Counted from the first letter of the stretch, positions 39,523 through 53,421 are shown. The stretch: DNA of 64,000 bases from Phormidesmis sp. (GCA_965248535.1 CBDFJR010000005.1:1248001-1312000); one strand, 5' to 3'. Notes: generated from the letters alone by a model not told the origin. Made by a program: numbers and translations.

Positions 39523-42500
39523 TTATACCGCGATCGCGACTCCCTCGATCGCTTCATCTGCCGTCTCATATAAATCACGCAACTGCGCCAACTTTTCTGG
39601 TTCGGGTTGCCAAAAGCCGCGACCGTTTGCTTCTAACATCCTACTAACGATGTTGCGGAAGGCTTCAGGGTTTGCCGATCGCAGTTTGTTCGCCATTTCT
39701 GAATCCAGTGCGTAAGTTTCGGCGGCTTGGTCATAAACCCAGGATTCTTGAAAATCGACGGTGCCGCCCCAGCCGATTAAAGCAGTCATGCGCTGAGAAA
39801 TCTCGTAAGCCCCACCAGAACCCTGATCTGCCATGGCTTCTGCCCATTTGGGGTTCAGCAGTTTTGTGCGATATTCTAGCCGCAGCAAATCGTCTAAATC
39901 GCGAGGGGTCGTGTCTTTTGAGAAACTTTCGACAAAACTCGCCTGCACTTTTTTGCCCTGCTGCTTTTCGGCGGCTCGTTTTAATCCGCCCGTGTTGGCA
40001 TAATATTCCTGAATGTCCGTCAAGCCGTATTCGACCGAATCGATTTCTTGAATGATCCGATCGGTGGTGTTTAGCAGCGATTCTAAGATCAGCGATCGGT
40101 CTTGTCCTTTATCGGTTCTGCCATAGCTAAATCCGTTGCGACTTTGCCAGGTTTGTGCCAACTCATCGCCCGATTCCCAGTTGCCAGCAACGACCCGATC
40201 GTTAACGAGAGAACCGTAGTCTCCAGATGGATTTGAGAATAGACGTGCTGAAGGATTTTCAACGCCTTGAGCAATGAGTGGTTTAACGTGTTTGCGAACA
40301 AAATTCTGATCGTCTGGTTCGTCAGCATCGGCAGCGCGCTGAAACAAATCGTCTAATAGCTCAATGATATTGACAAAGCTATCTCTAAAAATGCCTGAGA
40401 GATTGGCTAATACATCAATTCGGGGATGCCCAACTTCTGCTAGCGGTCTTAACTCATAGCGAACAATTCGCCCAGTGCCTTCTTTAACGGGTTCTGCACC
40501 GACTAGCTCTAACAAAATGCCGAGCGATTCGCCTTTGGTTTTAATCGCGTCTAAGCCCCACAGCATCACTGCCACAGTTTCGGGATAGGTGCCGTGCTGC
40601 TGCAAATGTTGCGTGAGAATTTGTTGGGCGATCGCTCTCCCTCGTTCATAGGCCGCAGGCGACGGCATCCGATAAGGGTCGAGGGCATGAATGTTTCGTC
40701 CGGTGGGCAAAACTTCTGCCCCGTCGCGCAGCAAATCGCCACCGGGAGCGGGCGGAATATACTCGCCATTCAGTCCTCGCAGTAAGTTAGTGAGTTCGTC
40801 GGTATTTTGAGCCAGCAGATCGCGAATTTTTGATGCTTCTTCAGTCTCCGCCGCGCCGTCGAAATAGGCGTTGAGATAACTGTCTAATTCTTCAGGGTTG
40901 GGCGGTTCACCAAGGACGTGTAACCCTGATGAAAATAGACGATTTTCGAGAATTTGCAGATAGTCGTAGAGAGTGATTAAGTAGCGATTAAATGCCTCGT
41001 TACTAAAAAGTTTAACGGTCTCGATCGTAACCCCCATGCCCATTTTTTGAGCGTCTATAAACGGACAATCTGCATCAAGTCCGGTGTCGCTAATCTTCTT
41101 GCAAATCACCTCTTTAAGAGCGTAATTTTTATCAGAATCTTCGCGATATTCAGCAATTAAATCGCGCAGGGTAACGAGTTCTTTATACAATCCCGCTCGA
41201 CCGTAGGGCGGAACATTGTGCGAGATCAAAACCCCATAGCCGCGCCGCTTGGCCAGAATTGATTCAGAGGGATTGTTGGCTGCATAAATGTAGAGATTGG
41301 GCAAATTTCCGAGCAAGACATCTGACCACGAATACCCCGTGTTGCCTAATGGAGAACCAGGGAGCCATTCAACCGTGCCGTGCATCCCAAAGTGAACGAT
41401 CGCGCTAGCCTGAAAGTCTTTTTGTAACCACTGATAAAAGGCCGCATATTGGGGATGAGGGGTGAGATCGCGATCGAACATTAATCGCATTGGGTCGCCC
41501 GAAATGCCCAACGGTGGCTGCACTCCAATCCACACGTTGCCAAACTGAACTCCGCCCCAAGTTAGGGCTTCACCCATTGTTTTGATGCCGCTTCCCGATA
41601 GCGATTTCCACTGTTTTTCAATGCGTGAAGTGAGGAGATAACCTAACCATTTTTCTAGAGTCCGAACGTTAATCGACTGGTGTGTAGAATCATCCGTTTG
41701 GAATTCACCGATCCATTCATCGGCTTGTTTCACTTGACGGATAATTTCTTCGCCATCTTGGGGCAACTCTCCGATCGTGTAGCCCTGATCTTTAAGCGCT
41801 TGCAGAAGTTTAAGCAGCGACTTTGGCACATTCAACAAAGCGGCAGTGCCGACGGCTCCATAGCCCGGTGGAAAGCCATATAAGATAATCGCGAGTTTAC
41901 GATCGCTGACCGATTTGCGCCGCAGATCGATCCATTTTTGCAGCCGTCCGGTGAGCCGTTTGACCCGTTCGGGAATCAGGTAAATCTTCTCTCCGACCAA
42001 ACCGCCTAGAGGAATGGTATCGATCGCACCATCTAACTCCGGTAGCGCATAAAGCACCACGCTTTGCAAACCGCCAATTCCCTGCCGCGTCCAAGAGTGA
42101 ATGTCTTGAATCAACAGTGGTGCCGCCACTAAATAAGGAATATTTTTAGCGCTGAGAATGCGTTTTGCCACTTCGGTTTGACGACCCGCTTCCATTGAGC
42201 CAGCCGGCCCCCCGACTAGTGGAAAGCCAATCGTAGAGACGATCGCATCCACCTTTGCCGCTTCACTAGACAGTGATTTTGTCTCTATAATGCCTTGCTG
42301 ACGTTGTGCTTGTTCATAGTCAGTCGTCATCAAATCGCGCACTGCTACATGACCCTCAACCCCGTTGATAAAAATCGGTAGCGGAATCAAATTTGCCTGC
42401 TCAAACTGTCGAATTAGTTGGGCAATATAAGGCTGTTTTGTAATAACGTGCTTTCGATAAAGCAAAATTCCTACTACGGGAAGATTTTTGGATTGACGAG

Positions 42501-43170
42501 TTTTATACCAACTCAAATATTGTTTAGGAGACTCAAAATAGCCCAAATAATCTGGGTGCAGCAATCCGATATTAGGAGTCTCGATCGGAGGCGCAATGTC
42601 TCCAACATCTAACCCTAAATACTTCTCTGCCAAAACCCAAAACAGAGCCGCTACATTTTCTGATCCTCCTGCATTCCAATAGCCATAAATAATCAGCCAG
42701 TTCCGCAGATCTTGCACCTTTTGACCGGGCAGAAATTTCAGTAATTTTGGACCAATTTTGAGAAAGCTAATATAGCCCGCCAGTTTATCTTCTTCTCGCC
42801 CATTGCCAAACTTATCGAGAATGAATTTAACAGGTTTTGGCATCCCCTTAGGCTTGTCTCCAATGGCAAACTTGCCGAGTTGGGTGAGGCTCATCAACTC
42901 TAACGCCGACTCAAACACTAACCGCATGGGGATTTGCTGCACTCGCTGCCGCAGCCACATCACCTGATCATAGTCAAACAGCAAACTTCCAAAAAACGCA
43001 TCCGCCCCTTGCAGCGCCGATTCAACTTGGGTGGGCTGAAGAGTGAGATCACGATCGCTAAACACCAAAATCTCTAAGTCTGGGCATCGCATCTGAGCTA
43101 CTTGAGCCGCCTGACGGTAAAGATCCGCATTAAAAGACTCAAACCCAGCGATTAAAACAATCCGTTTCAT
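39523..43170 (-). CDS. bchH: Magnesium chelatase subunit H (BchH-type paralog)
   Basis: 1215 aa; HFGMHGTVEWLPG, LPTGRNIHALDP, RTKLLNPKW. Confidence 0.92.
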   Translation of the reverse strand: MKRIVLIAGFESFNADLYRQAAQVAQMRCPDLEILVFSDRDLTLQPTQVESALQGADAFFGSLLFDYDQVMWLRQRVQQIPMRLVFESALELMSLTQLGKFAIGDKPKGMPKPVKFILDKFGNGREEDKLAGYISFLKIGPKLLKFLPGQKVQDLRNWLIIYGYWNAGGSENVAALFWVLAEKYLGLDVGDIAPPIETPNIGLLHPDYLGYFESPKQYLSWYKTRQSKNLPVVGILLYRKHVITKQPYIAQLIRQFEQANLIPLPIFINGVEGHVAVRDLMTTDYEQAQRQQGIIETKSLSSEAAKVDAIVSTIGFPLVGGPAGSMEAGRQTEVAKRILSAKNIPYLVAAPLLIQDIHSWTRQGIGGLQSVVLYALPELDGAIDTIPLGGLVGEKIYLIPERVKRLTGRLQKWIDLRRKSVSDRKLAIILYGFPPGYGAVGTAALLNVPKSLLKLLQALKDQGYTIGELPQDGEEIIRQVKQADEWIGEFQTDDSTHQSINVRTLEKWLGYLLTSRIEKQWKSLSGSGIKTMGEALTWGGVQFGNVWIGVQPPLGISGDPMRLMFDRDLTPHPQYAAFYQWLQKDFQASAIVHFGMHGTVEWLPGSPLGNTGYSWSDVLLGNLPNLYIYAANNPSESILAKRRGYGVLISHNVPPYGRAGLYKELVTLRDLIAEYREDSDKNYALKEVICKKISDTGLDADCPFIDAQKMGMGVTIETVKLFSNEAFNRYLITLYDYLQILENRLFSSGLHVLGEPPNPEELDSYLNAYFDGAAETEEASKIRDLLAQNTDELTNLLRGLNGEYIPPAPGGDLLRDGAEVLPTGRNIHALDPYRMPSPAAYERGRAIAQQILTQHLQQHGTYPETVAVMLWGLDAIKTKGESLGILLELVGAEPVKEGTGRIVRYELRPLAEVGHPRIDVLANLSGIFRDSFVNIIELLDDLFQRAADADEPDDQNFVRKHVKPLIAQGVENPSARLFSNPSGDYGSLVNDRVVAGNWESGDELAQTWQSRNGFSYGRTDKGQDRSLILESLLNTTDRIIQEIDSVEYGLTDIQEYYANTGGLKRAAEKQQGKKVQASFVESFSKDTTPRDLDDLLRLEYRTKLLNPKWAEAMADQGSGGAYEISQRMTALIGWGGTVDFQESWVYDQAAETYALDSEMANKLRSANPEAFRNIVSRMLEANGRGFWQPEPEKLAQLRDLYETADEAIEGVAIAV

Positions 43171-43278
43171 GCCCTAAGTGTCAAAAAGATCTGATGTCTC
43201 AATCTTAAAGCAGTCTCCCCTCAGAAAGGCACCTCTCATCAGCAGGAGGAGATCCAGACTTTGATCGGATCGAATTGA

Positions 43279-43318
43279 TTGACAGTTCATCTTAATTCTT
43301 TTATAGTACCTGTGTACT
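43279..43318 (+). promoter_or_regulatory. Sigma70-type promoter overlapped by a LexA box
   Basis: TTGACA 43279-43284, 17 nt, TATAGT 43302-43307; AGTAC-CTG-TGTACT 43305-43318 fits RGTAC-N3-DGTWCB. Confidence 0.8.
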
Positions 43319-43391
43319 AACTGGGCAAATCTGAAGGCAATCGGGGACATATGATCGCAGCCCTTTCCGCATCAGTATAAAGGAGAAACCA

Positions 43392-44462
43392 ATGACCAGT
43401 GTAGAAACCAGACAGGCAAAGGCCAAAAAAGAAATGACGATCGCCACGCCAGATCTTCCTGCAATAGAATCGCCCGTTCGCTCTGCGCCAACCCGATCGC
43501 TGGCTCTCGATGGGGGAAACTATGATCTCAAGTTTTGGGATGGCACCGGAATTCCTAAAGCGATTCGCTCGATTCGATTTCAGGTTCCCCAGGGTCGTGA
43601 TCCCGTCCGTTATTCCGATAGTTCTCCGCTCGTAGAGTTGCCTGACGGCACGCGCTATCACTTTGGCACCCAGGCTTATAAATATCGCAGACAGCAGCAA
43701 ACCGTGGTCGAAAATAAGGTTGACCTGGCCCGGCTGCATCTCTATGCCTGTTTAGAAGCAGACCGATCGGTTGAAGATCTCTGCCAGTTTCATCTTCAGC
43801 TTCACGTCTCAACCCCCGAACCTGCTAAAAGTCAGGAGTCGTTGAGGTCACAACTGATGGGCGTGCATGAGTTTAAGCGCAACGGCATTCCGTTTAGGGT
43901 GACGGTCGATCAGGTTGAGGTTGAGCGAGAAGGGTTGGGTTCCTATCGCTACGCGCAGCGGCTAGGGCTGATCGCCGAAAGTGGCTATACGATCGTGGTC
44001 GATATTGGCGGCGGCACCTGGATCACTCGCTTAATGGATGCCGAAGGAGACGTGATTGACGAAAACGTGATGGATCGCGGCGGCGCTTATGAACTAGCAA
44101 CAGCCATCAGTTTTGATAAGCGCTTGACCAATGTGTTATCCACCACTGCCGACCCCGCGATCGTCATGGATGGGTTTAAAACAGGACACAACTACGCCGA
44201 TACAGGGCTATCGTGGTCGCTCTGGCTTGACGACTATCTTGACCCCTGGTTTAAAGGCATCTTTCAGACGATCAAAGCGCAATACACCCCTTATATGGCC
44301 AGGGTGACGCGGTTTTTGGTAACTGGCGGAAGCTCTCATCTGATCGCCGAACGGCTGGCGGGGCGCAAGTTATTTGCGGTCATGCCCGAACCTCAGTTTG
44401 CCAACGTTCGCGGTCTATTTCCCATTAACGAAGGATTGCAGCTATGTATGACAACAAAGTGA
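43392..44462 (+). CDS. ParM/StbA-like actin-fold ATPase
   Basis: ALDGGNYDLK (phosphate 1), EREGLGS, VVDIGGGT (phosphate 2), LVTGGSS, PQFANVRG; AAGGAG RBS. Confidence 0.9.
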   Translation: MTSVETRQAKAKKEMTIATPDLPAIESPVRSAPTRSLALDGGNYDLKFWDGTGIPKAIRSIRFQVPQGRDPVRYSDSSPLVELPDGTRYHFGTQAYKYRRQQQTVVENKVDLARLHLYACLEADRSVEDLCQFHLQLHVSTPEPAKSQESLRSQLMGVHEFKRNGIPFRVTVDQVEVEREGLGSYRYAQRLGLIAESGYTIVVDIGGGTWITRLMDAEGDVIDENVMDRGGAYELATAISFDKRLTNVLSTTADPAIVMDGFKTGHNYADTGLSWSLWLDDYLDPWFKGIFQTIKAQYTPYMARVTRFLVTGGSSHLIAERLAGRKLFAVMPEPQFANVRGLFPINEGLQLCMTTK

Positions 44463-44686
44463 GACTCAGCGAAGATGTGCTAGAAAAGGCAGAAATGATT
44501 GCCTCAGAATGGGGTTTGAAGAATGCACGAGCCGCGATCGAGGCCGTTTTTCGCAAATATGCCGACGATTATTTGTATGGACGAACCCAGTTTGGTGGTG
44601 GAGATACGATCGTGCCCTTTAGACAGGTGAATTCGTCTAGCGATTGTGATGCATTAGACGAGTTAGACGAGTTGTTAGGGCTTTAA
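44444..44686 (+). CDS. Small ParR-like partner (predicted RHH N-terminus, acidic tail)
   Basis: Overlaps actin 3' end; KVRLSEDVLEKAEMIA...ARAAIEAVFRKY; tail DALDELDELLGL. Confidence 0.7.
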   Translation: MYDNKVRLSEDVLEKAEMIASEWGLKNARAAIEAVFRKYADDYLYGRTQFGGGDTIVPFRQVNSSSDCDALDELDELLGL

Positions 44687-44801
44687 CCTCGTGGATTAAA
44701 TCAGATCACTGGCACAGGCAATGGGCATGGCATGGCTCTGCCCTAGCGCGGAGGGTTCCTGCCATCGCCCCTGTTTCTTGATTTGTTTGCTGAAGATGAG
44801 G

Positions 44802-45533
44802 TTATGTGTCTTGAGATAGCTCATCCCACAGAGAAGTGGTTTGGCGCAAGCTGAGGTGATTTCCGTTGCCCAAAATTAGGTGATCTAAAAGCGGAATGTC
44901 TAAAAACTTTGCTCCTGTTAGCAGTTGGCGAGTCAGGGCAAGGTCTTCAGGGCTGGGTTCGACATTGCCAGAGGGGTGATTGTGGGCGATGATCACGCGA
45001 GTTGCTCCCTGACGGAGCACTTCTCTAAAAATGTCGCGGGGATGGGCAAGGGTTTCTGTCGCCGTGCCGATCGTGATAATTTGCGTCCCGATCAGACGGT
45101 GTTTTGTGTCGAGCAGCAGCACGGCAAATCGCTCCTGGTTTTGCCACATGAGATCATTACTCAACGCTGCCGCCGCCACTGCGGGGTCATCAATCACCGT
45201 TTTTTCGGGCGGTCGAGATTGATAGACGCGCTTGCCAAGCTCGATCGCTGCCAAAATCGTAGTGGCCTTTGCCGGGCCAACCCCCGAAATCTTGATCAAT
45301 TGTTGAATGCTGACCTCTCGCAAAACGCCGAGGGGATCGCGCTGATGCTGGCTCAATTCTTGCAGCATGAATTGCCCTAACCCAACGGCCGAAAGCTTTC
45401 CGGCTCCCTGCCCGGTGCCCAGTAAGATCGCAATTAACTCTGCTGTAGAGAGAATCTTGGCACCCTGGGCCATCAACCGTTCGCGGGGTCGCTCGCTCAT
45501 CGGCAAATCGGCGATTCTCAGGCTGTAGGTCAT
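44802..45533 (-). CDS. radC: RadC (JAB domain) protein
   Basis: ERPRERL, GVGPAKA, HNHPSG...D, LLDHLI. Confidence 0.96.
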
Positions 45534-45821
45534 GATTAGACTCAGAAACTATTTCGTTAGGAATAGATTGAGTAATCCCTGAGGGGAGGGTGAGAGCGAC
45601 ACAAACTGTTAGCGGAGCGAGCGTAAAGACCCGATCGCTCAAGTTTGGGACATGAGCGATCGGCACTTGAGTTTAGCGCCCAAACCCCTAGAGCCAAGCA
45701 CCGAGAGTATTTCAGTGATTCGTATTTGAAAACTGCAAGCAAGGAATGCTCTCCAAGAAAAGAGTTCCACAACCCCATATCGCAGAGAGAAGAATCGCCG
45801 ATCCGTTAGAAGTAGGAATTG

Positions 45822-46445
45822 TTAAAGCGTGCCATAGCCTCGCCAAACGCCCACCAAAACGCCCTGCACATCTACTTGGGCCGCCGCAACTTCGGTGACA
45901 GGGTAGAGGTCTCGATTGGAGTTTCCGGGTTGCAAGATCACCTTGCTGCCTTTTCTTTGAAAATATTTCAGCGTCGTTTTTCCTTCGACTCGTGCGGCAA
46001 CGATCGCGTTGTTTTTCAAAATCTTGGGGTCGGGCACTGGCTGCATGATCACGACATCGCCGTCATCGATCAGCGCATCGATCATGCTGTGCCCCCGTAC
46101 TTTTAAGGCAAAATGCTGGGGCTTGAGCAGCAGGCTAGAGAGATCGAGGTGCTCAACTTCAGTGTCAGAAAAGTTTTCTACGAGGCTGGTTGCGGCGATC
46201 GCGCCTAAAATTGGCACTCCTTTGGGTTCGGGGTGCAGCAGTCGAATGGTGCGGGCCTGCCCTTCTGTCCAGATGATATAGCCTTTATTTCGCAGGTGTT
46301 CTAAGCGGCTCTGCACGGGGGCGGGAGACTTAAGATTCATCGCGGCCATCATCTGCCGAATCGAGGGAGAATGCTGATGTTGATGAATATAGTCGGCTAA
46401 CCAGTCATAGAGTTGTCGCTGCGGGTCGGTGAGAGATTCCAGCAT
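45822..46445 (-). CDS. lexA: Transcriptional repressor LexA
   Basis: SPSIRQMM...KSPAPVQSRLEHL wHTH; VRGHSM (Ser) and TTLK (Lys). Confidence 0.96.
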   Translation of the reverse strand: MLESLTDPQRQLYDWLADYIHQHQHSPSIRQMMAAMNLKSPAPVQSRLEHLRNKGYIIWTEGQARTIRLLHPEPKGVPILGAIAATSLVENFSDTEVEHLDLSSLLLKPQHFALKVRGHSMIDALIDDGDVVIMQPVPDPKILKNNAIVAARVEGKTTLKYFQRKGSKVILQPGNSNRDLYPVTEVAAAQVDVQGVLVGVWRGYGTL

Positions 46446-46471
46446 AAGTAGTACAAATGAGAAAAGATTTT

Positions 46472-46543
46472 AGAACATTTGTATCACGTATTAGTACAAT
46501 CGTCTAGGGGTTTAAACAAAAGATTTTTTAGAACAGTTGTATC
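46472..46543 (-). promoter_or_regulatory. Two near-consensus LexA boxes upstream of lexA
   Basis: AGAACATTTGTATC (46472-46485) and AGAACAGTTGTATC (46530-46543), each one mismatch from RGTAC-N3-DGTWCB on the minus strand. Confidence 0.7.
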
Positions 46544-46654
46544 GTTCACTTTAACGGTTAGGTAGCAATCTAAATCAAGATTGCGATCGTTCTTAATGCA
46601 GTTCGTTTGCGATAATGGGTGGGTTGATAAACCGCTGTTTTGATTCGGTGACTT

Positions 46655-47575
46655 ATGACTGCTGCTGCAACCACCCCTCGTCTCGCCTCTCGCGTTGTAA
46701 ATCGCATTCTGGCGATCAAGCCTTTGTTTAATCTGGCAAAATATCAGGCGCGTCAGATGATGATTAAGCGGGCAGCGTCGATCGGGGTGCAGTGGGTTCA
46801 AGAAGCTGAGAGGCTACGATCGCGCGATTGGACAGCCGGATTTAATCAAGTCAACAATCCCAATTTGGTCTATCCCGATTATTATTTGCGTCCCTTTCAC
46901 GCCTACAACGAGGGCAACTTGGGCTGGCAGCCTGCTAGCGAAGTTGAAGTGGCTGCTTACTCAGTTCATGCCAGAATCTGGAAAGATGCCGGAGCCGAAG
47001 GCGATGCCCGACTGCGCCAGAGCTATCACGATCATTTAAAAGGTCAACTGCCCAGCCTACCTAACGACATTGTGGACTTAGGCTGTAGCGTTGGCATGAG
47101 CACCTTTGCGCTCCAAAAGACGTTTCCTAATGCCAAGATGACGGGAGTCGATTTATCGCCTTATTTTCTGGCGGTGGCCGACTATCAAACTCAACGTTTA
47201 CACTCACAGAATCCGCCGACTTGGGTTCATGCTGCTGCCGAATCAACAGGTTTACCCTCCGCCGCGTTTGACTTAGTGTCTGCTTGTTTGATGTTTCATG
47301 AACTGCCTCGAACGGCGGCGATCGCGATCTTGCAAGAAGCCAAACGACTGCTGCGACCCGGCGGGCACTTAGCGATTATGGATATGAATCCTAAGTCAGA
47401 AATCTATGCCAAGATGCCGCCCTATATTCTGACGCTGCTCAAAAGCACTGAGCCGTATATAGATGATTACTTCTCGTTTGATCTTGAGGGCGCGATCGCC
47501 CAGTCAGGCTTTACTCACCCTACCGTGACCTGCAACACGCCACGCCACCGCACGATCGTGGCTCAGGTTAAATAG
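46655..47575 (+). CDS. Class I SAM-dependent methyltransferase
   Basis: YPDYYLRPFHAY, VDLGCSVG, FDLVSACLMFHE; same family as 22387..23253. Confidence 0.92.
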   Translation: MTAAATTPRLASRVVNRILAIKPLFNLAKYQARQMMIKRAASIGVQWVQEAERLRSRDWTAGFNQVNNPNLVYPDYYLRPFHAYNEGNLGWQPASEVEVAAYSVHARIWKDAGAEGDARLRQSYHDHLKGQLPSLPNDIVDLGCSVGMSTFALQKTFPNAKMTGVDLSPYFLAVADYQTQRLHSQNPPTWVHAAAESTGLPSAAFDLVSACLMFHELPRTAAIAILQEAKRLLRPGGHLAIMDMNPKSEIYAKMPPYILTLLKSTEPYIDDYFSFDLEGAIAQSGFTHPTVTCNTPRHRTIVAQVK

Positions 47576-50385: not shown

Positions 50386-51663
50386 TTAAGTTGGGTCATA
50401 AATCGAACCCATAAACAAAATTTCACCCGTTTTGTTATCTCGAATCGCACAGAAAAAGGGACGATCGACAATCATCACAAACGGCGCGACTTCCTGCTGA
50501 ATAGACGTAGCGCGAATGCCCACCGAGGTCACGGCGGCGGCTTCGGTGCCTTCTTCATTCACATCGATAAAGGTTTTGTGTTTGACTGCATCAATGCGCG
50601 TCGAAGTCGTGCTCAGGTCAGAAAAATCTGCCTTTGATGGGTCGAAAGCCACGCCCATTCCCAAGCCTGAAAGGGAATTTTTAAGGTCAATTTCATAATC
50701 CATCTTGAAGCGGGGCAGTTGAATCGAGCCTTCGCGCTTGCTGAAGGTTTTCATCCAGGTTTGCCAATTTTCGGCCGTCAGCGTCTTTTGAAACTCTGCA
50801 AGACTGGAGGTTGACTTGGGCAAGAAGACATACAGACTGGTGCGCCCCTTACCGTAAGGGAGGCTGACCGCTTGAAACTGCGGAGTTTCGGCATAGCGAT
50901 AGTCGCCTTTTTGAGCCATCATCGGGTGCTGTTTTTGACGACCGTTTGCCAGAGTAAAGGTTTGATCGGTGGTTTGGCTCTTGTCAAATTCAGTCATCCA
51001 CTTGCCTTTGAAATAGATGGCGTTGATCAAAACCATGACTTGACTGGCATCCAGACGATCGACGATTTCGCGAATTTTGCCCTGAGTATTTTTCTTTACC
51101 CAGTCGTTGATCTGCCCCGGTGCTGTGGGGTCGGCAAAATCGAGAGACGTGACCTCGGCCGCATAAAATTTTTGATTGCGCTGGATAAATTCGGGCTTAA
51201 AGTCTACGCCCTTTCTAGCCCAAAGCGAGTTAGCGATCGTCAACTTCACGTTTGGGTCATTGCTTTCGAGCAGAGTTTTGAGCGTGGCATTAGCCTGATT
51301 GATCTCTAAAAGGCTCATGCCCTGCATTTCTAAAGCTCTAGCCATCGCTTGCTGAGTGTCGCCCCCCGCCCCGTTGTAGGTCATGGAGAGCGCGATCGCG
51401 ACGCTCATAGGCGACACAAACACGTTCTTTTTGCCATCTTGCTTGAGAATTTCGGAAAACAGCTTGAAGCTAAAGCGCGTGTTGGCCTCGATCAGTTTGG
51501 GATTGACCACTAGTTTAGAGTGAGCCGCGATCGGGCTTGAGGATGAGTTAATCGGTCTGGGAGTGCGGTTTGAGCCTGCCGCCGTTGAGCAACTGACCGA
51601 GGTGAGGGTGACGATCGCGGCCAAAACAGCGACTCCGATTCGGGTCATTAAAAGGTTGCTCAT
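50386..51663 (-). CDS. Serpin, probable lipoprotein
   Basis: NVFVSPMS, NAIYFKGKW, EEGTEAAA hinge, VDRPFF; signal ending LTSVSC. Confidence 0.95.
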   Translation of the reverse strand: MSNLLMTRIGVAVLAAIVTLTSVSCSTAAGSNRTPRPINSSSSPIAAHSKLVVNPKLIEANTRFSFKLFSEILKQDGKKNVFVSPMSVAIALSMTYNGAGGDTQQAMARALEMQGMSLLEINQANATLKTLLESNDPNVKLTIANSLWARKGVDFKPEFIQRNQKFYAAEVTSLDFADPTAPGQINDWVKKNTQGKIREIVDRLDASQVMVLINAIYFKGKWMTEFDKSQTTDQTFTLANGRQKQHPMMAQKGDYRYAETPQFQAVSLPYGKGRTSLYVFLPKSTSSLAEFQKTLTAENWQTWMKTFSKREGSIQLPRFKMDYEIDLKNSLSGLGMGVAFDPSKADFSDLSTTSTRIDAVKHKTFIDVNEEGTEAAAVTSVGIRATSIQQEVAPFVMIVDRPFFCAIRDNKTGEILFMGSIYDPT

Positions 51664-51735
51664 CGGGATTTTGTGGTTACAAGTTGTCTCTACCTTTCGC
51701 TACGGTAGTGGATGAATGATTTCCGGGCAGGCTGG

Positions 51736-53421
51736 TTACAATTTTGGCGACGCGGGCACCGTCCACCAAGCCAACGCATAGGGCTGAGTCGGCTGATTGA
51801 CGCGCTGACGAAACACAACCCGAATTTTATAGCGTCCGGTAACCGGAATCGGCTGAAAAATGTGTTCAACGCTGTCTAAGTTGCTGATCGACGAGGCAAC
51901 ACTCTGACGAATGTCTTGATCTTCGGCGTGCATCAGGTAAAGGTCGAGATTATTTAGCCCCCGATCGCTAAATCCTTCTCCTAAGTCAAACTGACGGTTT
52001 TGATTGCGATCGTTCAACTCCACCAGTCGATCCCACGCCAGGGTTAGCGCGACATAGCTGCCCTGCTGCAACGGGTTTGCCAACACATAATCCTGAAATG
52101 AGGCTTTTCCTAAATCGAGGGTTTCATAATTCCACCCGATCGCGGGCACGGGGTTTTCGGGCTTCCACTCGCCAGGGCTAAACTGCTGATAAGCCCGAAA
52201 CGCATTTAACTGACCTGCCCCCATTTGAATGTTGAGCGGCACTTGCGGATTTTTGTAAGCATCTGACTCTAGCCAGGTTTGATTATTTTTTTCTAATATC
52301 GTGCGCGTCATGCCCAAAAATTGACCGTTGCCGCTGTCTTTAATTTTGTCGGCGGAATTGATCATTACGGCTTTCATCACCTCGTGGTGGCGGGCATCTA
52401 ACCCCCACGGCAGTTTGCAGCCTGCGCCGCGTTTGCAGCTAGCCCGCAGTTGACGATCGCCAAACTCTTGCAACAGAGCGACTGTTGCAGTGACGTGAGG
52501 GGCAGCAAAACTGGTGCCGATCGAGGTCGTTAACTTGCCTTCTAAATTGGCGACCGAGACTTTATTGCCGGGTGCCACGAGGGAGATGCCGCGCCGTCCT
52601 CCGAGATTTGTTTCAACGCCATCGTTGCGTTTGAGAATGCGAGGAGACACGTCACCGATATTAGAAAAATCAACTTTGGCATAAACGCCCTTTAATCGTG
52701 TGGTGAATGCAATATTCATGCCGTTGTAATTGTCAGTCGGAATGGGAATGCCGCCTTTACCCTGATTGCCTGCCACTACATAGACGACATCATGCACCCG
52801 CGCCGACCAGTCGATACACAGCGTCAGCAGCGCGTTGCCGTCTAGTTTGGCTCCCGATCGTGGGTCTTGCTGAAGGGCTTCACCAAAGCTGAAGTTAATC
52901 GCTCGCACATCGCCGCCATTTTGCATTGCCAAATATTCAGCAGCCAGACACTCTTCGGGCTGCCCACCCTGATGAGGAATGGCCGCCGCCGAAGCATAGA
53001 GTCGGGCATTGGGGGCAACGCCTTTAATTGCTTTGCTGTTGCCGATGAGAATGCTGGCCACTTGAGCCGCGTGAGTATCCAGATGGGTGTTGCCCTTGGC
53101 AGGTTGATCGCGAAAAAATGCGCGCCCGATCGTCACCACTTGATTCCGGTTTGCCACCTTATCTAAACCGCTTTGGGGAGGTCGCCCGATCTCGACTTGC
53201 CCGATCGCGATCTTGCGTCCCGTCAAGTTATAGGGTGGCCTTTGTAGTTTTAGAGCATCAATGCCATCTTGGGCGATCGAAGACTCTTCTAGAGATGCGC
53301 CTTTTACGCCTCCGGCTAGGGTTGCCCAAGCCAAAACTCCACAGACCAACCACCGTTTATGAATCCGCCGCACTGCAATCTGCTCCCGATTGGCCACGTT
53401 TATCTTCGCTTGACCCTTCAA
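51736..53421 (-). CDS. Secreted S8 (subtilisin-like) peptidase
   Basis: THAAQVA (His), VAGN, GTSFAAPHV (Ser); N-terminal hydrophobic signal. Confidence 0.9.
   Translation of the reverse strand: MKGQAKINVANREQIAVRRIHKRWLVCGVLAWATLAGGVKGASLEESSIAQDGIDALKLQRPPYNLTGRKIAIGQVEIGRPPQSGLDKVANRNQVVTIGRAFFRDQPAKGNTHLDTHAAQVASILIGNSKAIKGVAPNARLYASAAAIPHQGGQPEECLAAEYLAMQNGGDVRAINFSFGEALQQDPRSGAKLDGNALLTLCIDWSARVHDVVYVVAGNQGKGGIPIPTDNYNGMNIAFTTRLKGVYAKVDFSNIGDVSPRILKRNDGVETNLGGRRGISLVAPGNKVSVANLEGKLTTSIGTSFAAPHVTATVALLQEFGDRQLRASCKRGAGCKLPWGLDARHHEVMKAVMINSADKIKDSGNGQFLGMTRTILEKNNQTWLESDAYKNPQVPLNIQMGAGQLNAFRAYQQFSPGEWKPENPVPAIGWNYETLDLGKASFQDYVLANPLQQGSYVALTLAWDRLVELNDRNQNRQFDLGEGFSDRGLNNLDLYLMHAEDQDIRQSVASSISNLDSVEHIFQPIPVTGRYKIRVVFRQRVNQPTQPYALAWWTVPASPKL

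Follow-up and report, generated by a model that had tools for sequence, protein, structure and literature searches.

A chromosomal ParM/ParR-like operon of Leptolyngbya- and Phormidesmis-type cyanobacteria with a predicted LexA-type operator at its promoter

Introduction

How does the chromosome of a filamentous cyanobacterium come to carry an actin-like ATPase gene with a ParR-like partner gene, behind a promoter that LexA might control, and what would such a pair do there? The question is raised by a stretch of 64,000 nucleotides (nt) from Phormidesmis sp. (GCA_965248535.1 CBDFJR010000005.1:1248001-1312000), called here the window. It corresponds to G000:C5:1248001-1312000 of the genome G000, which has 5.03 Mb in 5 contigs; positions given without a contig are those of the window.

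Chromosomal derivatives of ParMR have been known only since 2025, as CorMR or FcmBC, and, as far as the two reports describe them, only from Nostocales and Oscillatoriales (bioRxiv 10.1101/2025.06.27.661541; PMC12645912). CorM/CorR of Anabaena sp. PCC 7120 (bioRxiv 10.1101/2025.06.27.661541) is the same system as FcmB/FcmC of Nostoc punctiforme (mSphere 2025, PMC12645912). According to these texts the system shapes cells in both orders, its ATPase has a disordered N-terminus of 40 amino acids (aa), and the 162-aa partner CorR uses an N-terminal amphipathic helix to bind the membrane, with no binding to DNA. The preprint calls the disordered extension special to chromosomal CorM, and the native CorMR and FcmBC promoters are described as strong and as toxic in Escherichia coli (bioRxiv 10.1101/2025.06.27.661541; PMC12645912).

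An earlier reading of the window, made from its sequence alone (the sequence-only reading), had proposed a domesticated chromosomal filament system under LexA control. Our analysis leads us, with moderate confidence, to a plasmid-derived ParM/ParR filament module that is now a single-copy, vertically inherited chromosomal operon, is separate from CorMR/FcmBC, and has a LexA-type operator.

An actin-like ATPase and its partner gene

Two overlapping open reading frames (ORFs) make up the pair:

43392..44462, plus strand: ATPase gene, a 356-aa ORF, actin-like with a ParM fold
44444..44686, plus strand: partner gene, an 80-aa ORF
44444..44462, plus strand: overlap of 19 nt between the two genes, from the ORF coordinates

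Of 68 complete orthologous pairs, 59 have the same 19-nt overlap, which implies that translation of the two genes is probably coupled. The AlphaFold2 model of the ATPase, built on 40 orthologs, has a ParM-type actin fold (predicted local distance difference test, pLDDT, 72.4; predicted template modeling score, pTM, 0.67). Searched with Foldseek, the model matched ParM of pSK41 first (3js6, E 1.2e-15); Clostridium botulinum ParM, Ta0583, CorM (9rmi, rank 6), Alp12, and R1 ParM were among the other top matches, and ParM-type matches ranked above MreB and DnaK. At the sequence level, the ATPase scores just below the cut-off of the Pfam family ALP_N (PF17989; 23.6 bits versus 26.3), for which most of its orthologs have a precomputed match. 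Searches of sequences of solved structures, run with the single protein and with a profile, gave weak matches only (Ta0583 at E 5e-4, then AlfA, CBg-ParM, and Dh-cParM1), and the CorM structure was reached by fold search only, not by sequence.

Invariant in 40 ATPase sequences were D40 and G42 of the phosphate-1 motif, the catalytic E180, D204 and G206 to T209 of phosphate-2, and G312 and G313 of the adenosine motif. The sequence-only reading had described an actin-fold ATPase with all five motifs; the fold bears it out, and these residues agree with it for phosphate-1, the catalytic glutamate, phosphate-2, and adenosine. Residues 1 to 36 form an extension specific to this clade, in which a variable disordered linker comes after a conserved basic peptide, M-T-x-x-T-R-Q-x-K-x-x-K. 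The extension runs for 20 to 45 aa after the peptide across orthologs, and residues 1 to 31 have a pLDDT below 50 and are disordered in the model.

Distribution and inheritance of the pair

We sampled 61 genomes of the order, which comprises thin filamentous cyanobacteria of the Leptolyngbya/Phormidesmis type. An ATPase ortholog with 65 to 96% identity is present in 58 of them (2 are partial, at contig ends), while a profile search with G413 as positive control found both genes of the pair absent from the other three, G248, G405, and G437. A protein search with the ATPase returned 275 relatives, the best 120 of which are all 67 to 93% identical and come from Leptolyngbya-like cyanobacteria; proteins of Phormidesmis priestleyi, 93 to 96% identical, are the closest named relatives. 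Only 4 other genomes in a phylum-wide sample of 401 had a close ortholog. We recovered 72 named loci, some of them on complete chromosomes of 5.5 to 7.2 Mb. The partner gene adjoins the ATPase gene in 69 of the 72, the 3 misses being contig ends, and the flanks change between genera while the pair stays intact.

The window's genome has one copy of the pair, in housekeeping surroundings. Most genomes of the order are likewise single-copy; some have 2 to 8 matches, the extra ones at 22 to 32% identity. The ATPase is 92 to 96% conserved within the genus and 65 to 82% between genera, and the corresponding values for LexA are 92 to 97% and 59 to 79%. The sequence-only reading had named, as an outcome that would speak against it, homologs that are only plasmid-borne at a strain-specific locus; the presence of an ortholog in nearly all sampled genomes of the order is the opposite of this. 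Hence, the distribution supports the pair being a domesticated, chromosomal, and probably vertically inherited ParMR derivative, as that reading had suggested. One ortholog, L112 (JAVYJL010000001.1, a MinION-only assembly), is cut to 197 aa next to an intact partner gene, probably through a sequencing frameshift and not as a pseudogene.

The pair is separate from CorMR/FcmBC

If the pair were simply a CorMR ortholog, which the sequence-only reading had allowed for, little about it would be new. By their build (381 plus 162 aa and 360 plus 175 aa), CorMR-type pairs were recognized on main contigs of Nostocaceae-like and Microcoleus-like genomes. The window ATPase did not match CorM significantly (BLASTP E 0.019). 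A profile of the window clade matched 28 plasmid-type ParM ORFs and none of 5 CorM ORFs, even at E 10. In a maximum-likelihood tree of 86 proteins, whose rows were picked by similarity to the query and whose root is a midpoint only, the window clade and CorM lie on opposite sides of a branch with SH-like approximate likelihood ratio (SH-aLRT) support of 100, with the window clade (support 99) placed inside a varied set of ParM/StbA proteins. BLASTP, profile, and tree thus separate the two systems, and we ruled out CorMR orthology. No CorM ortholog was found in the window's genome; the best match to a CorM query (E 5e-11) is a patchy, frameshifted paralog.

The likeness to CorMR is one of architecture. 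Both are chromosomal two-gene ParMR derivatives of filamentous cyanobacteria, both combine a ParM fold with a disordered N-terminal extension of the ATPase, both have the partner gene directly downstream, with an RHH-like start (RHH, ribbon-helix-helix) and a short C-terminal helix that here is predicted to contact the ATPase, and neither has a parC-like repeat array. However, the structural identity of the window ATPase to 9rmi is 18%, no closer than to pSK41 ParM; the partner has 80 aa instead of 162 and lacks the long H5a helix and the N-terminal amphipathic helix; and the pair is found in another set of orders.

Relation to plasmid ParM/ParR

The nearest relatives of the ATPase outside its clade are rare cyanobacterial ParM/StbA proteins with 35 to 47% identity. 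In a plasmid collection it had 63 matches, all cyanobacterial and all below 60% identity. The best of these (46.8%) is encoded on a 38-kb Allocoleopsis plasmid (L184, NC_019741.1, Allocoleopsis franciscana PCC 7113 pMIC7113.05). The ParM gene of this plasmid has neither the N-terminal extension nor an AGTAC box, and its 109-aa partner has a similar motif, A-L-D-A-L-L, at its end. A perfect 12-bp inverted repeat, likely a ParR operator, flanks the -35 hexamer of the plasmid gene (pMIC7113.05, 2380-2425).

With plasmid ParMRC (R1; pSK41, 3js6) and the cyanobacterial ParM/StbA proteins the pair shares the fold, the gene order, and a partner laid out as a putative RHH, linker, and C-terminal helix. 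It differs in being chromosomal, single-copy, and vertically inherited, in the added N-terminal extension of the ATPase, and in having no repeat array, a host-regulon palindrome replacing the ParR site at the promoter. The simplest reading of these sequence comparisons is that the pair derives from plasmid ParM/ParR and represents a second, independent domestication of plasmid ParMR.

Its origin also leaves room for a pair that is a selfish remnant of an integrated plasmid or prophage with no host function. Plasmid ParM proteins are indeed its nearest outside relatives, and other, patchy actin-like genes occur in the same genome. We find this scarcely credible, however, for a pair that persists in 58 of 61 genomes, mostly in one copy and as conserved as LexA, with no mobility genes nearby and with flanks that differ between genera around intact genes.

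A conserved palindrome fused to the -10 hexamer

The promoter of the operon has the following elements:

43279..43284, plus strand: -35 hexamer TTGACA; the consensus gggTTGACA is kept across 64 distinct orthologous promoters
43302..43307, plus strand: -10 hexamer TATAGT, 17 nt past the -35 hexamer; shares its last three bases with the start of the box
43305..43318, palindromic, no strand assigned: 14-bp palindrome AGTACCTGTGTACT (AGTAC, spacer CTGT, GTACT), predicted LexA operator; matches RGTACNNNDGTWCB
43319..43391, plus strand: probable 5' leader, with a conserved AAnTGGG just past the box and a GGAG ribosome-binding site; no Rfam match

The promoter, close to the sigma-70 consensus, scores 11/12, and its positions agree with the sequence-only reading, which had seen TTGACA-N17-TATAGT overlapped by the box at the -10 hexamer; the window region has 2 promoter-like sites against a shuffle mean of 1.9, which is no excess. 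The palindrome AGTACCTGTGTACT is the only match to RGTACNNNDGTWCB in the 64 kb and matches on both strands; shuffled versions of the window had a mean of 0.28 matches, and 2 of 100 reached 2. No centromere-like parC repeats were found at the promoter, which has the single palindrome instead.

We then compared upstream regions of 300 nt, counted back from the start codon, for the window and the 66 loci with enough sequence (n = 67). The best match to AGTAC-N4-GTACT was 10/10 in 32 promoters, 9/10 in 28, and 8/10 in 7, so that the box, whose conservation in relatives the sequence-only reading had left to be established, is there at 8/10 or better in every one of them. Among 1525 control windows of 300 nt from the same loci, 1 reached 10/10, 10 reached 9/10, and 80 reached 8/10. 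The box stands in the same place in 64 of the 67 promoters, fused to the -10 hexamer (TAT-AGTAC) and 17 nt past TTGACA; L072, L085, and L090, with ambiguous best matches, were left out of the conservation profile. In that profile TATAGTAC, the -10 hexamer joined to the left half-site, is near-invariant. The half-sites approach 2 bits of information per position and the spacer has about 0.2 to 0.4 bits, with T preferred before the right half; 34 different spacers occur among the 67 promoters. Half-site variants in these boxes are GTTC and ATAC, the latter in the Stenomitos group. Fixed half-sites around a free spacer are what a protein-binding site looks like.

Orthologs in two other families also have the box (9/10 at L004, 8-9/10 at L005). 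No 9/10 box was found at 5 CorM loci, 28 plasmid-type loci, or 7 other actin loci, and its absence from 5 of 5 CorM loci is a further difference between the window pair and CorMR. Just past the box, at 43319-43335, the stretch A-A-(t/c)-n-G-G-G-n-n-A-A shows moderate conservation over 64 promoters and may represent an initial transcribed sequence, a second operator, or an RNA element; it has no Rfam match.

The partner and its putative ribbon-helix-helix domain

The first 46 residues of the partner are strongly conserved, and a variable linker joins them to an acidic C-terminal helix that is conserved as well, with the motif C-x-A-L-x-E-L-D-x-L-L-G-L, also seen as C-E-A-L-x-E-L-D-x-L-L-G-L. 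In its model an extended N-terminus precedes two helices (10-23 and 28-46), after which come a disordered linker and a C-terminal helix (69-78). The modeled layout is RHH-like, that is, a putative ribbon-helix-helix plus tail as in ParR. The comparison with the RHH protein CopG was not significant by phmmer (E 1.2), and Foldseek superposed the two with a root-mean-square deviation of 1.5 Å over 36 columns at 39% identity and E 2.6. Foldseek gave no match to the partner at E ≤0.001, and Pfam found nothing meaningful in 35 partner sequences (Mltc_N in 11 of 35, best E 0.002). Lon protease, which came up in a profile search of the PDB at E 0.05, was taken as chance and discarded.

In the ribbon, K5 is invariant and R7 near-invariant, and K26, N27, and R29 stand at the start of helix 2. 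The partner begins M-Y-D-N-K-V-R-L-S, the ribbon starts at about residue 5, and 32 of 35 aligned orthologs have no N-terminal extension. Judged from alignment and model, the protein has no room for an N-terminal amphipathic helix that could serve as membrane anchor.

Prediction of the ATPase-partner complex gave a result of the class "weak support", with a median score of 0.59 against 0.00 for the best of 3 controls. The runs agreed in at least 69% of contacts, and the partner had a pLDDT of at least 62. The mark of this test is reached by 116 of 157 solved complexes and by 2 of 215 mismatched pairs, and scores of 0.60 or lower comprise 18 of the 157 solved complexes and both passing mismatches, so that passes in this range are more often wrong than right unless the pairing is likely beforehand. 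Complexes of ParM with ParR peptides have already been solved, and hence the pass may reflect likeness only.

Which protein binds the box?

The palindrome could be the operator of the partner itself, used for ParR-like autoregulation as in plasmid parMRC or by CopG. Binding to short palindromes over promoters is known from RHH proteins, a 12-bp inverted repeat lies around the -35 hexamer of the plasmid relative, and the box is tied to the operon in 67 of 67 promoters. However, promoters of the form TATAGTAC-N4-GTACTAAA are still present before other genes in G248, G405, and G437. In the window's genome, too, the box stands before other genes, and 5 of 5 perfect palindromes are intergenic, compared with 9 of 32 for ten control palindromes (the intergenic calls use crude gene calls covering ~85% of the genome). 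Because three genomes without both genes of the pair have the same promoter design, we ruled out the partner as the binder and regard autoregulation as very improbable. Some pairings of box and gene recur across genera: a DUF2721 gene has the box in G000 and G248, and a small two-gene unit has it in G405, G413, and G418. At L166 (G248:C23:56778) and L170 (G405:C15:231525), a box identical to that of the window including its spacer (AGTACCTGTGTACT) lies beside unrelated genes without a family.

The other candidate is LexA. The pattern RGTACNNNDGTWCB is the LexA box consensus for Nostoc PCC 7120 (Mazon et al., as cited in the text of Li, Xu and Su 2010, PMC3091678). The lexA gene and related boxes in the window and its genome are:

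45822..46445, minus strand: lexA, downstream of the pair and convergent with it (Pfam/NCBIfam LexA); probable trans-acting repressor
46472..46485, minus strand: lexA promoter box 1, GATACAAATGTTCT on the lexA strand; motif kept in lexA promoters of the order
46530..46543, minus strand: lexA promoter box 2, GATACAACTGTTCT on the lexA strand; from a motif search of the lexA promoter
G000:C2:988204-988653: sepF
G000:C5:1322881-1323270: ssb
G000:C5:1136103-1139591: dnaE
G000:C5:884989-886422 and G000:C2:1959380-1961074: HerA-like genes

The lexA promoters of 30 genomes of the order contain one or two copies of G/A-ATAC-N3-TGTTCT. These boxes have the same spacing as those of the actin operon and the same T before the right half, and share the ATAC half-site with the Stenomitos actin boxes. 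Relaxed boxes in the window's genome stand before lexA, ssb, dnaE, two HerA-like helicase genes, sepF, and others (26 to 162 nt upstream over all the box-bearing genes listed from sepF on). The sepF box lies directly past a TATACT -10 hexamer, the same design as in the actin operon, and G418 has a relaxed box before a gene for an SbcD-like phosphoesterase. Compared with the recognition-helix region of the window LexA, NLKSPAPVQSRLEHLRNKGYI, that of 2 of 4 Nostocaceae-like LexA proteins shows one V/I change, and that of the other 2 differs at one further position. One Nostocaceae-like lexA promoter has AGTACTAATGTTCT, an exact fit to the consensus, and three have near-matches.

The candidate set resembles the cyanobacterial LexA regulon in the fit of the box to RGTACNNNDGTWCB, in the related boxes of lexA and ssb, and in that predicted regulons include non-repair genes, as set out in PMC3091678; it differs in that recA has no box here and LexA lacks Ala-Gly. 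ParM, actin, and segregation genes go unmentioned in the text of that regulon paper (PMC3091678). Since the box fits the consensus, shares its motif with lexA promoters, recurs at genes of DNA metabolism, and faces a LexA with a like recognition helix, LexA is the best candidate. That LexA, as one paralog or the other, binds the box appears very probable from these sequences, and somewhat less so for the adjacent LexA specifically. The sequence-only reading had called the box LexA-type, and its membership in the motif class found also at lexA, ssb, dnaE, and helicase genes argues in favor of that claim.

The lexA promoter itself (46446-46560) has two composite units, each a GATACAAnTGTTCT box followed ~25-40 nt later by a TTGTACTA half-site; this layout is kept within the genus and partly within the order. 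A divergent methyltransferase gene adjoins lexA in 19 of 30 lexA loci.

LexA paralogs and the cleavage bond

The window's genome encodes a second LexA paralog of 217 aa (G000:C5:1186921-1187574, ~61 kb upstream of the window start), which is 50% identical to the window LexA, has A-A-H in place of Ala-Gly, and has the same SPAPVQS start of the recognition helix. Genomes of the order have 1 to 4 LexA-like matches each, most of them at least 2. The second paralog gene is followed by a small ORF that overlaps it.

The palindrome might therefore be the operator of a regulator other than the adjacent LexA, either the second paralog or an unrelated global factor. This is what one would expect from the paralog with SPAPVQS and the number of LexA-like matches per genome, from the preference of lexA promoters for ATAC/GTTC where the actin promoter has GTAC/GTAC, and from a recA gene without a box. 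But the box is an exact fit to the cyanobacterial LexA consensus, which was derived by experiment; it shares both the T preceding the right half and the ATAC variant with the lexA boxes; and the recognition helix is conserved with Nostocales LexA. All this makes a different regulator improbable.

Aligned to E. coli LexA, the window LexA has Thr at Gly85 of the scissile bond Ala84-Gly85 and keeps the Ser/Lys dyad. Among 30 orthologs of the order (L131-L160), the serine motif G-x-S-M is present in 30 and the lysine motif T-L-K-Y-F/L is matched by pattern in 22. Nostocaceae-like LexA proteins keep A-A-G. Li et al. describe Ala-Gly in all cyanobacterial LexA proteins analyzed except that of Synechocystis, which is regarded in their text as uncleavable and as no SOS regulator (PMC3091678). 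Because Ala-Thr replaces the Ala-Gly cleavage bond, classical RecA-triggered derepression, and with it induction by DNA damage, is doubtful, which weakens the role after DNA damage that the sequence-only reading had proposed.

Several points weigh against a plasmid-derived filament module with a LexA-type operator. The 67 promoters are related by descent and are not 67 independent events, and the AGT of the left half-site also belongs to the -10 hexamer, so that part of the conservation may be the promoter's. Of 5 genomes, only G418 has more copies of AGTACNNNNGTACT than of the reversed pattern (7 versus 2; the other four have 2/2, 4/7, 2/2, and 3/3). Count-level enrichment of the palindrome is thus not seen in 4 of 5 genomes, and for this reason it is position and conservation, rather than number, that support an operator. 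Half-sites in the lexA promoters are ATAC/GTTC and never the perfect GTAC/GTAC, recA (G000:C5:1334363) has no box at 8/10 or better, the second LexA paralog could be the binder, and 29 of 30 LexA orthologs of the order have the A-A-T motif, with Ala-Thr for Ala-Gly. The RHH assignment of the partner is without statistical significance, and near the operon we found no repeat array to which the partner could bind, but only trivial two-copy short repeats. Finally, binding by LexA, expression of the operon, and polymerization of the ATPase are each deduced from sequences and models.

A possible mechanism and the role of the pair

If the pair is a LexA-operated filament module, a LexA dimer on the palindrome would block the -10 hexamer and the start site and keep a strong promoter shut. 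Upon inactivation of LexA, both proteins would be made together and in coupled amounts. The ATPase would polymerize with ATP, and a partner dimer could cap, decorate, or hold the filament via its acidic C-terminal helix. The N-terminal ribbon-helix-helix would hold a second ligand, for which DNA is favored over the membrane because there is no amphipathic helix and basic residues are kept in the ribbon. Our best guess for the cellular task is the handling of DNA or the nucleoid, or division, in a stress state governed by LexA.

A related case is AlpC/AlpA of prophage CGP3 in Corynebacterium glutamicum, which is described as co-transcribed and as induced early after mitomycin C (PMC4446434). 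Like the window pair it combines an actin-like protein with a DNA adaptor, and it provides a precedent for a bacterial actin linked to DNA damage. It differs in being prophage-encoded and serving phage DNA replication, with AlpA binding 24 alpS repeats, and direct LexA control is stated in that text for other CGP3 genes, not for alpAC (PMC4446434).

The cell-shape function of CorMR/FcmBC suggests another role. The pair might be an analogue of that system, a cortical cytoskeleton that arose by a second domestication, in which the partner anchors the filament to the membrane or to division proteins and LexA sets only the level. The chromosomal location, the filamentous lineages, and the disordered N-terminal extension of the ATPase fit such a role, as does the lack of a CorM ortholog in the window's genome. 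The strong promoters of CorMR and FcmBC, toxic in E. coli, fit a need for tight repression, and sepF has a related box. However, the partner ribbon begins at about residue 5 and leaves no room for an N-terminal amphipathic helix, the partner is half the length of CorR (80 versus 162 aa) without the long H5a helix, the ribbon keeps K5 and R7 as well as K26, N27, and R29, and the CorM loci have no box. We consider this cortical analogue possible, if on the unlikely side; a role in cell shape reached by convergent evolution is nearly as likely as one with a DNA ligand.

The most far-reaching version of the DNA-ligand role is a chromosome machine gated by LexA. The cells of these filamentous cyanobacteria are polyploid. 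The RHH partner would sit on chromosomal sites, and the filament would push or gather genome copies or nucleoids when repression lifts, as part of a non-canonical stress program that includes ssb, dnaE, HerA-type helicases, SepF, and an uncleavable Ala-Thr LexA. We regard this as rather unlikely, and the moving or pairing of chromosome copies that the sequence-only reading had suggested is speculative. If true, no earlier chromosomal ParMR would have been shown to move host DNA, and no earlier bacterial actin would have been placed in a LexA regulon.

Overall, our analysis suggests that a second lineage of filamentous cyanobacteria has fixed a different plasmid ParMR in its chromosome. The changes that followed differ from those in CorMR: the partner is short and has no membrane helix, the ATPase carries a conserved basic peptide, and the -10 hexamer is fused to a predicted operator of a host regulon. 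New here are the different order, the short partner, the basic N-terminal peptide of the ATPase, and the LexA-type operator; the kind of system was already published in 2025. Surveys for CorMR/FcmBC may list the clade described here under "mostly plasmid-encoded" clades or weak orthologs. The terms LexA and SOS have 0 occurrences in the CorMR preprint and the FcmBC paper, and full-text literature searches for a link between ParM or actin-like proteins and LexA in cyanobacteria found none, prophage AlpAC being the only precedent. If binding by LexA is confirmed, the operon would tie a stress regulator to a cytoskeletal filament in a way that can be tested, allow a natural comparison of how partition systems are repurposed, and offer a handle on what "LexA" governs in cyanobacteria without Ala-Gly LexA.

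Genomic neighborhood and further observations

Two more genes flank the pair in the window, in addition to lexA:

39523..43170, minus strand: gene of the CobN/Mg-chelatase family, 1215 aa, upstream of the pair (Pfam/NCBIfam CobN-Mg_chel)
44802..45533, minus strand: radC, downstream of the pair and convergent with it (Pfam/NCBIfam RadC)

ORFs and Pfam/NCBIfam matches agree with the two-gene operon, the overlapping 80-aa partner, and the bchH-like, radC, and lexA neighbors that the sequence-only reading had listed. Its statement that no rep, integrase, or mobility gene lies nearby also holds: no rep, integrase, or transposase family was found among the 16 ORFs of at least 120 aa between 29.9 and 58.3 kb, which are housekeeping genes or have no family (3 of 16 without any). 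The weight it gave to the placement beside radC and lexA did not survive the comparison. Among 72 related loci, lexA adjoins the pair in none, the Mg-chelatase gene in none, and radC in only 11, and we rejected the radC-lexA synteny as a hint at function. Five more genomes of the genus have lexA and the pair in separate places, on different contigs. As lexA adjoins the pair in 0 of 72 loci and the pair stands beside lexA in 0 of 29 other lexA loci, the adjacency is coincidental, an accident of the window's strain.

No terminator was predicted 3' of the partner gene, and an Rfam scan of 43000-47000 gave a single match at chance level. Four ice metatranscriptome runs from one study contain short contig pieces of 31 to 144 nt that are 90 to 99% alike and represent relatives' sequences; they cover the ATPase gene and the gene junction (1 of the 4 runs gave none) and are informative neither on the transcription start nor on transcription in the window's strain.

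The window's genome encodes two more actin-like genes, at G000:C2:2386832-2388400 (L042/L176) and G000:C5:1200139-1200744. A frameshift or an error of assembly divides the first into two ORFs, of 253 and 144 aa, that lie in different frames, and past them comes a gene for a 146-aa acidic-tailed partner. This extra actin-like type is patchy (29 of 61 genomes), multi-copy, and often found on secondary contigs. Elsewhere in the window, at 50386-53421 on the minus strand, a serpin gene (425 aa) lies beside a subtilase gene (561 aa), possibly as a protease-inhibitor pair.

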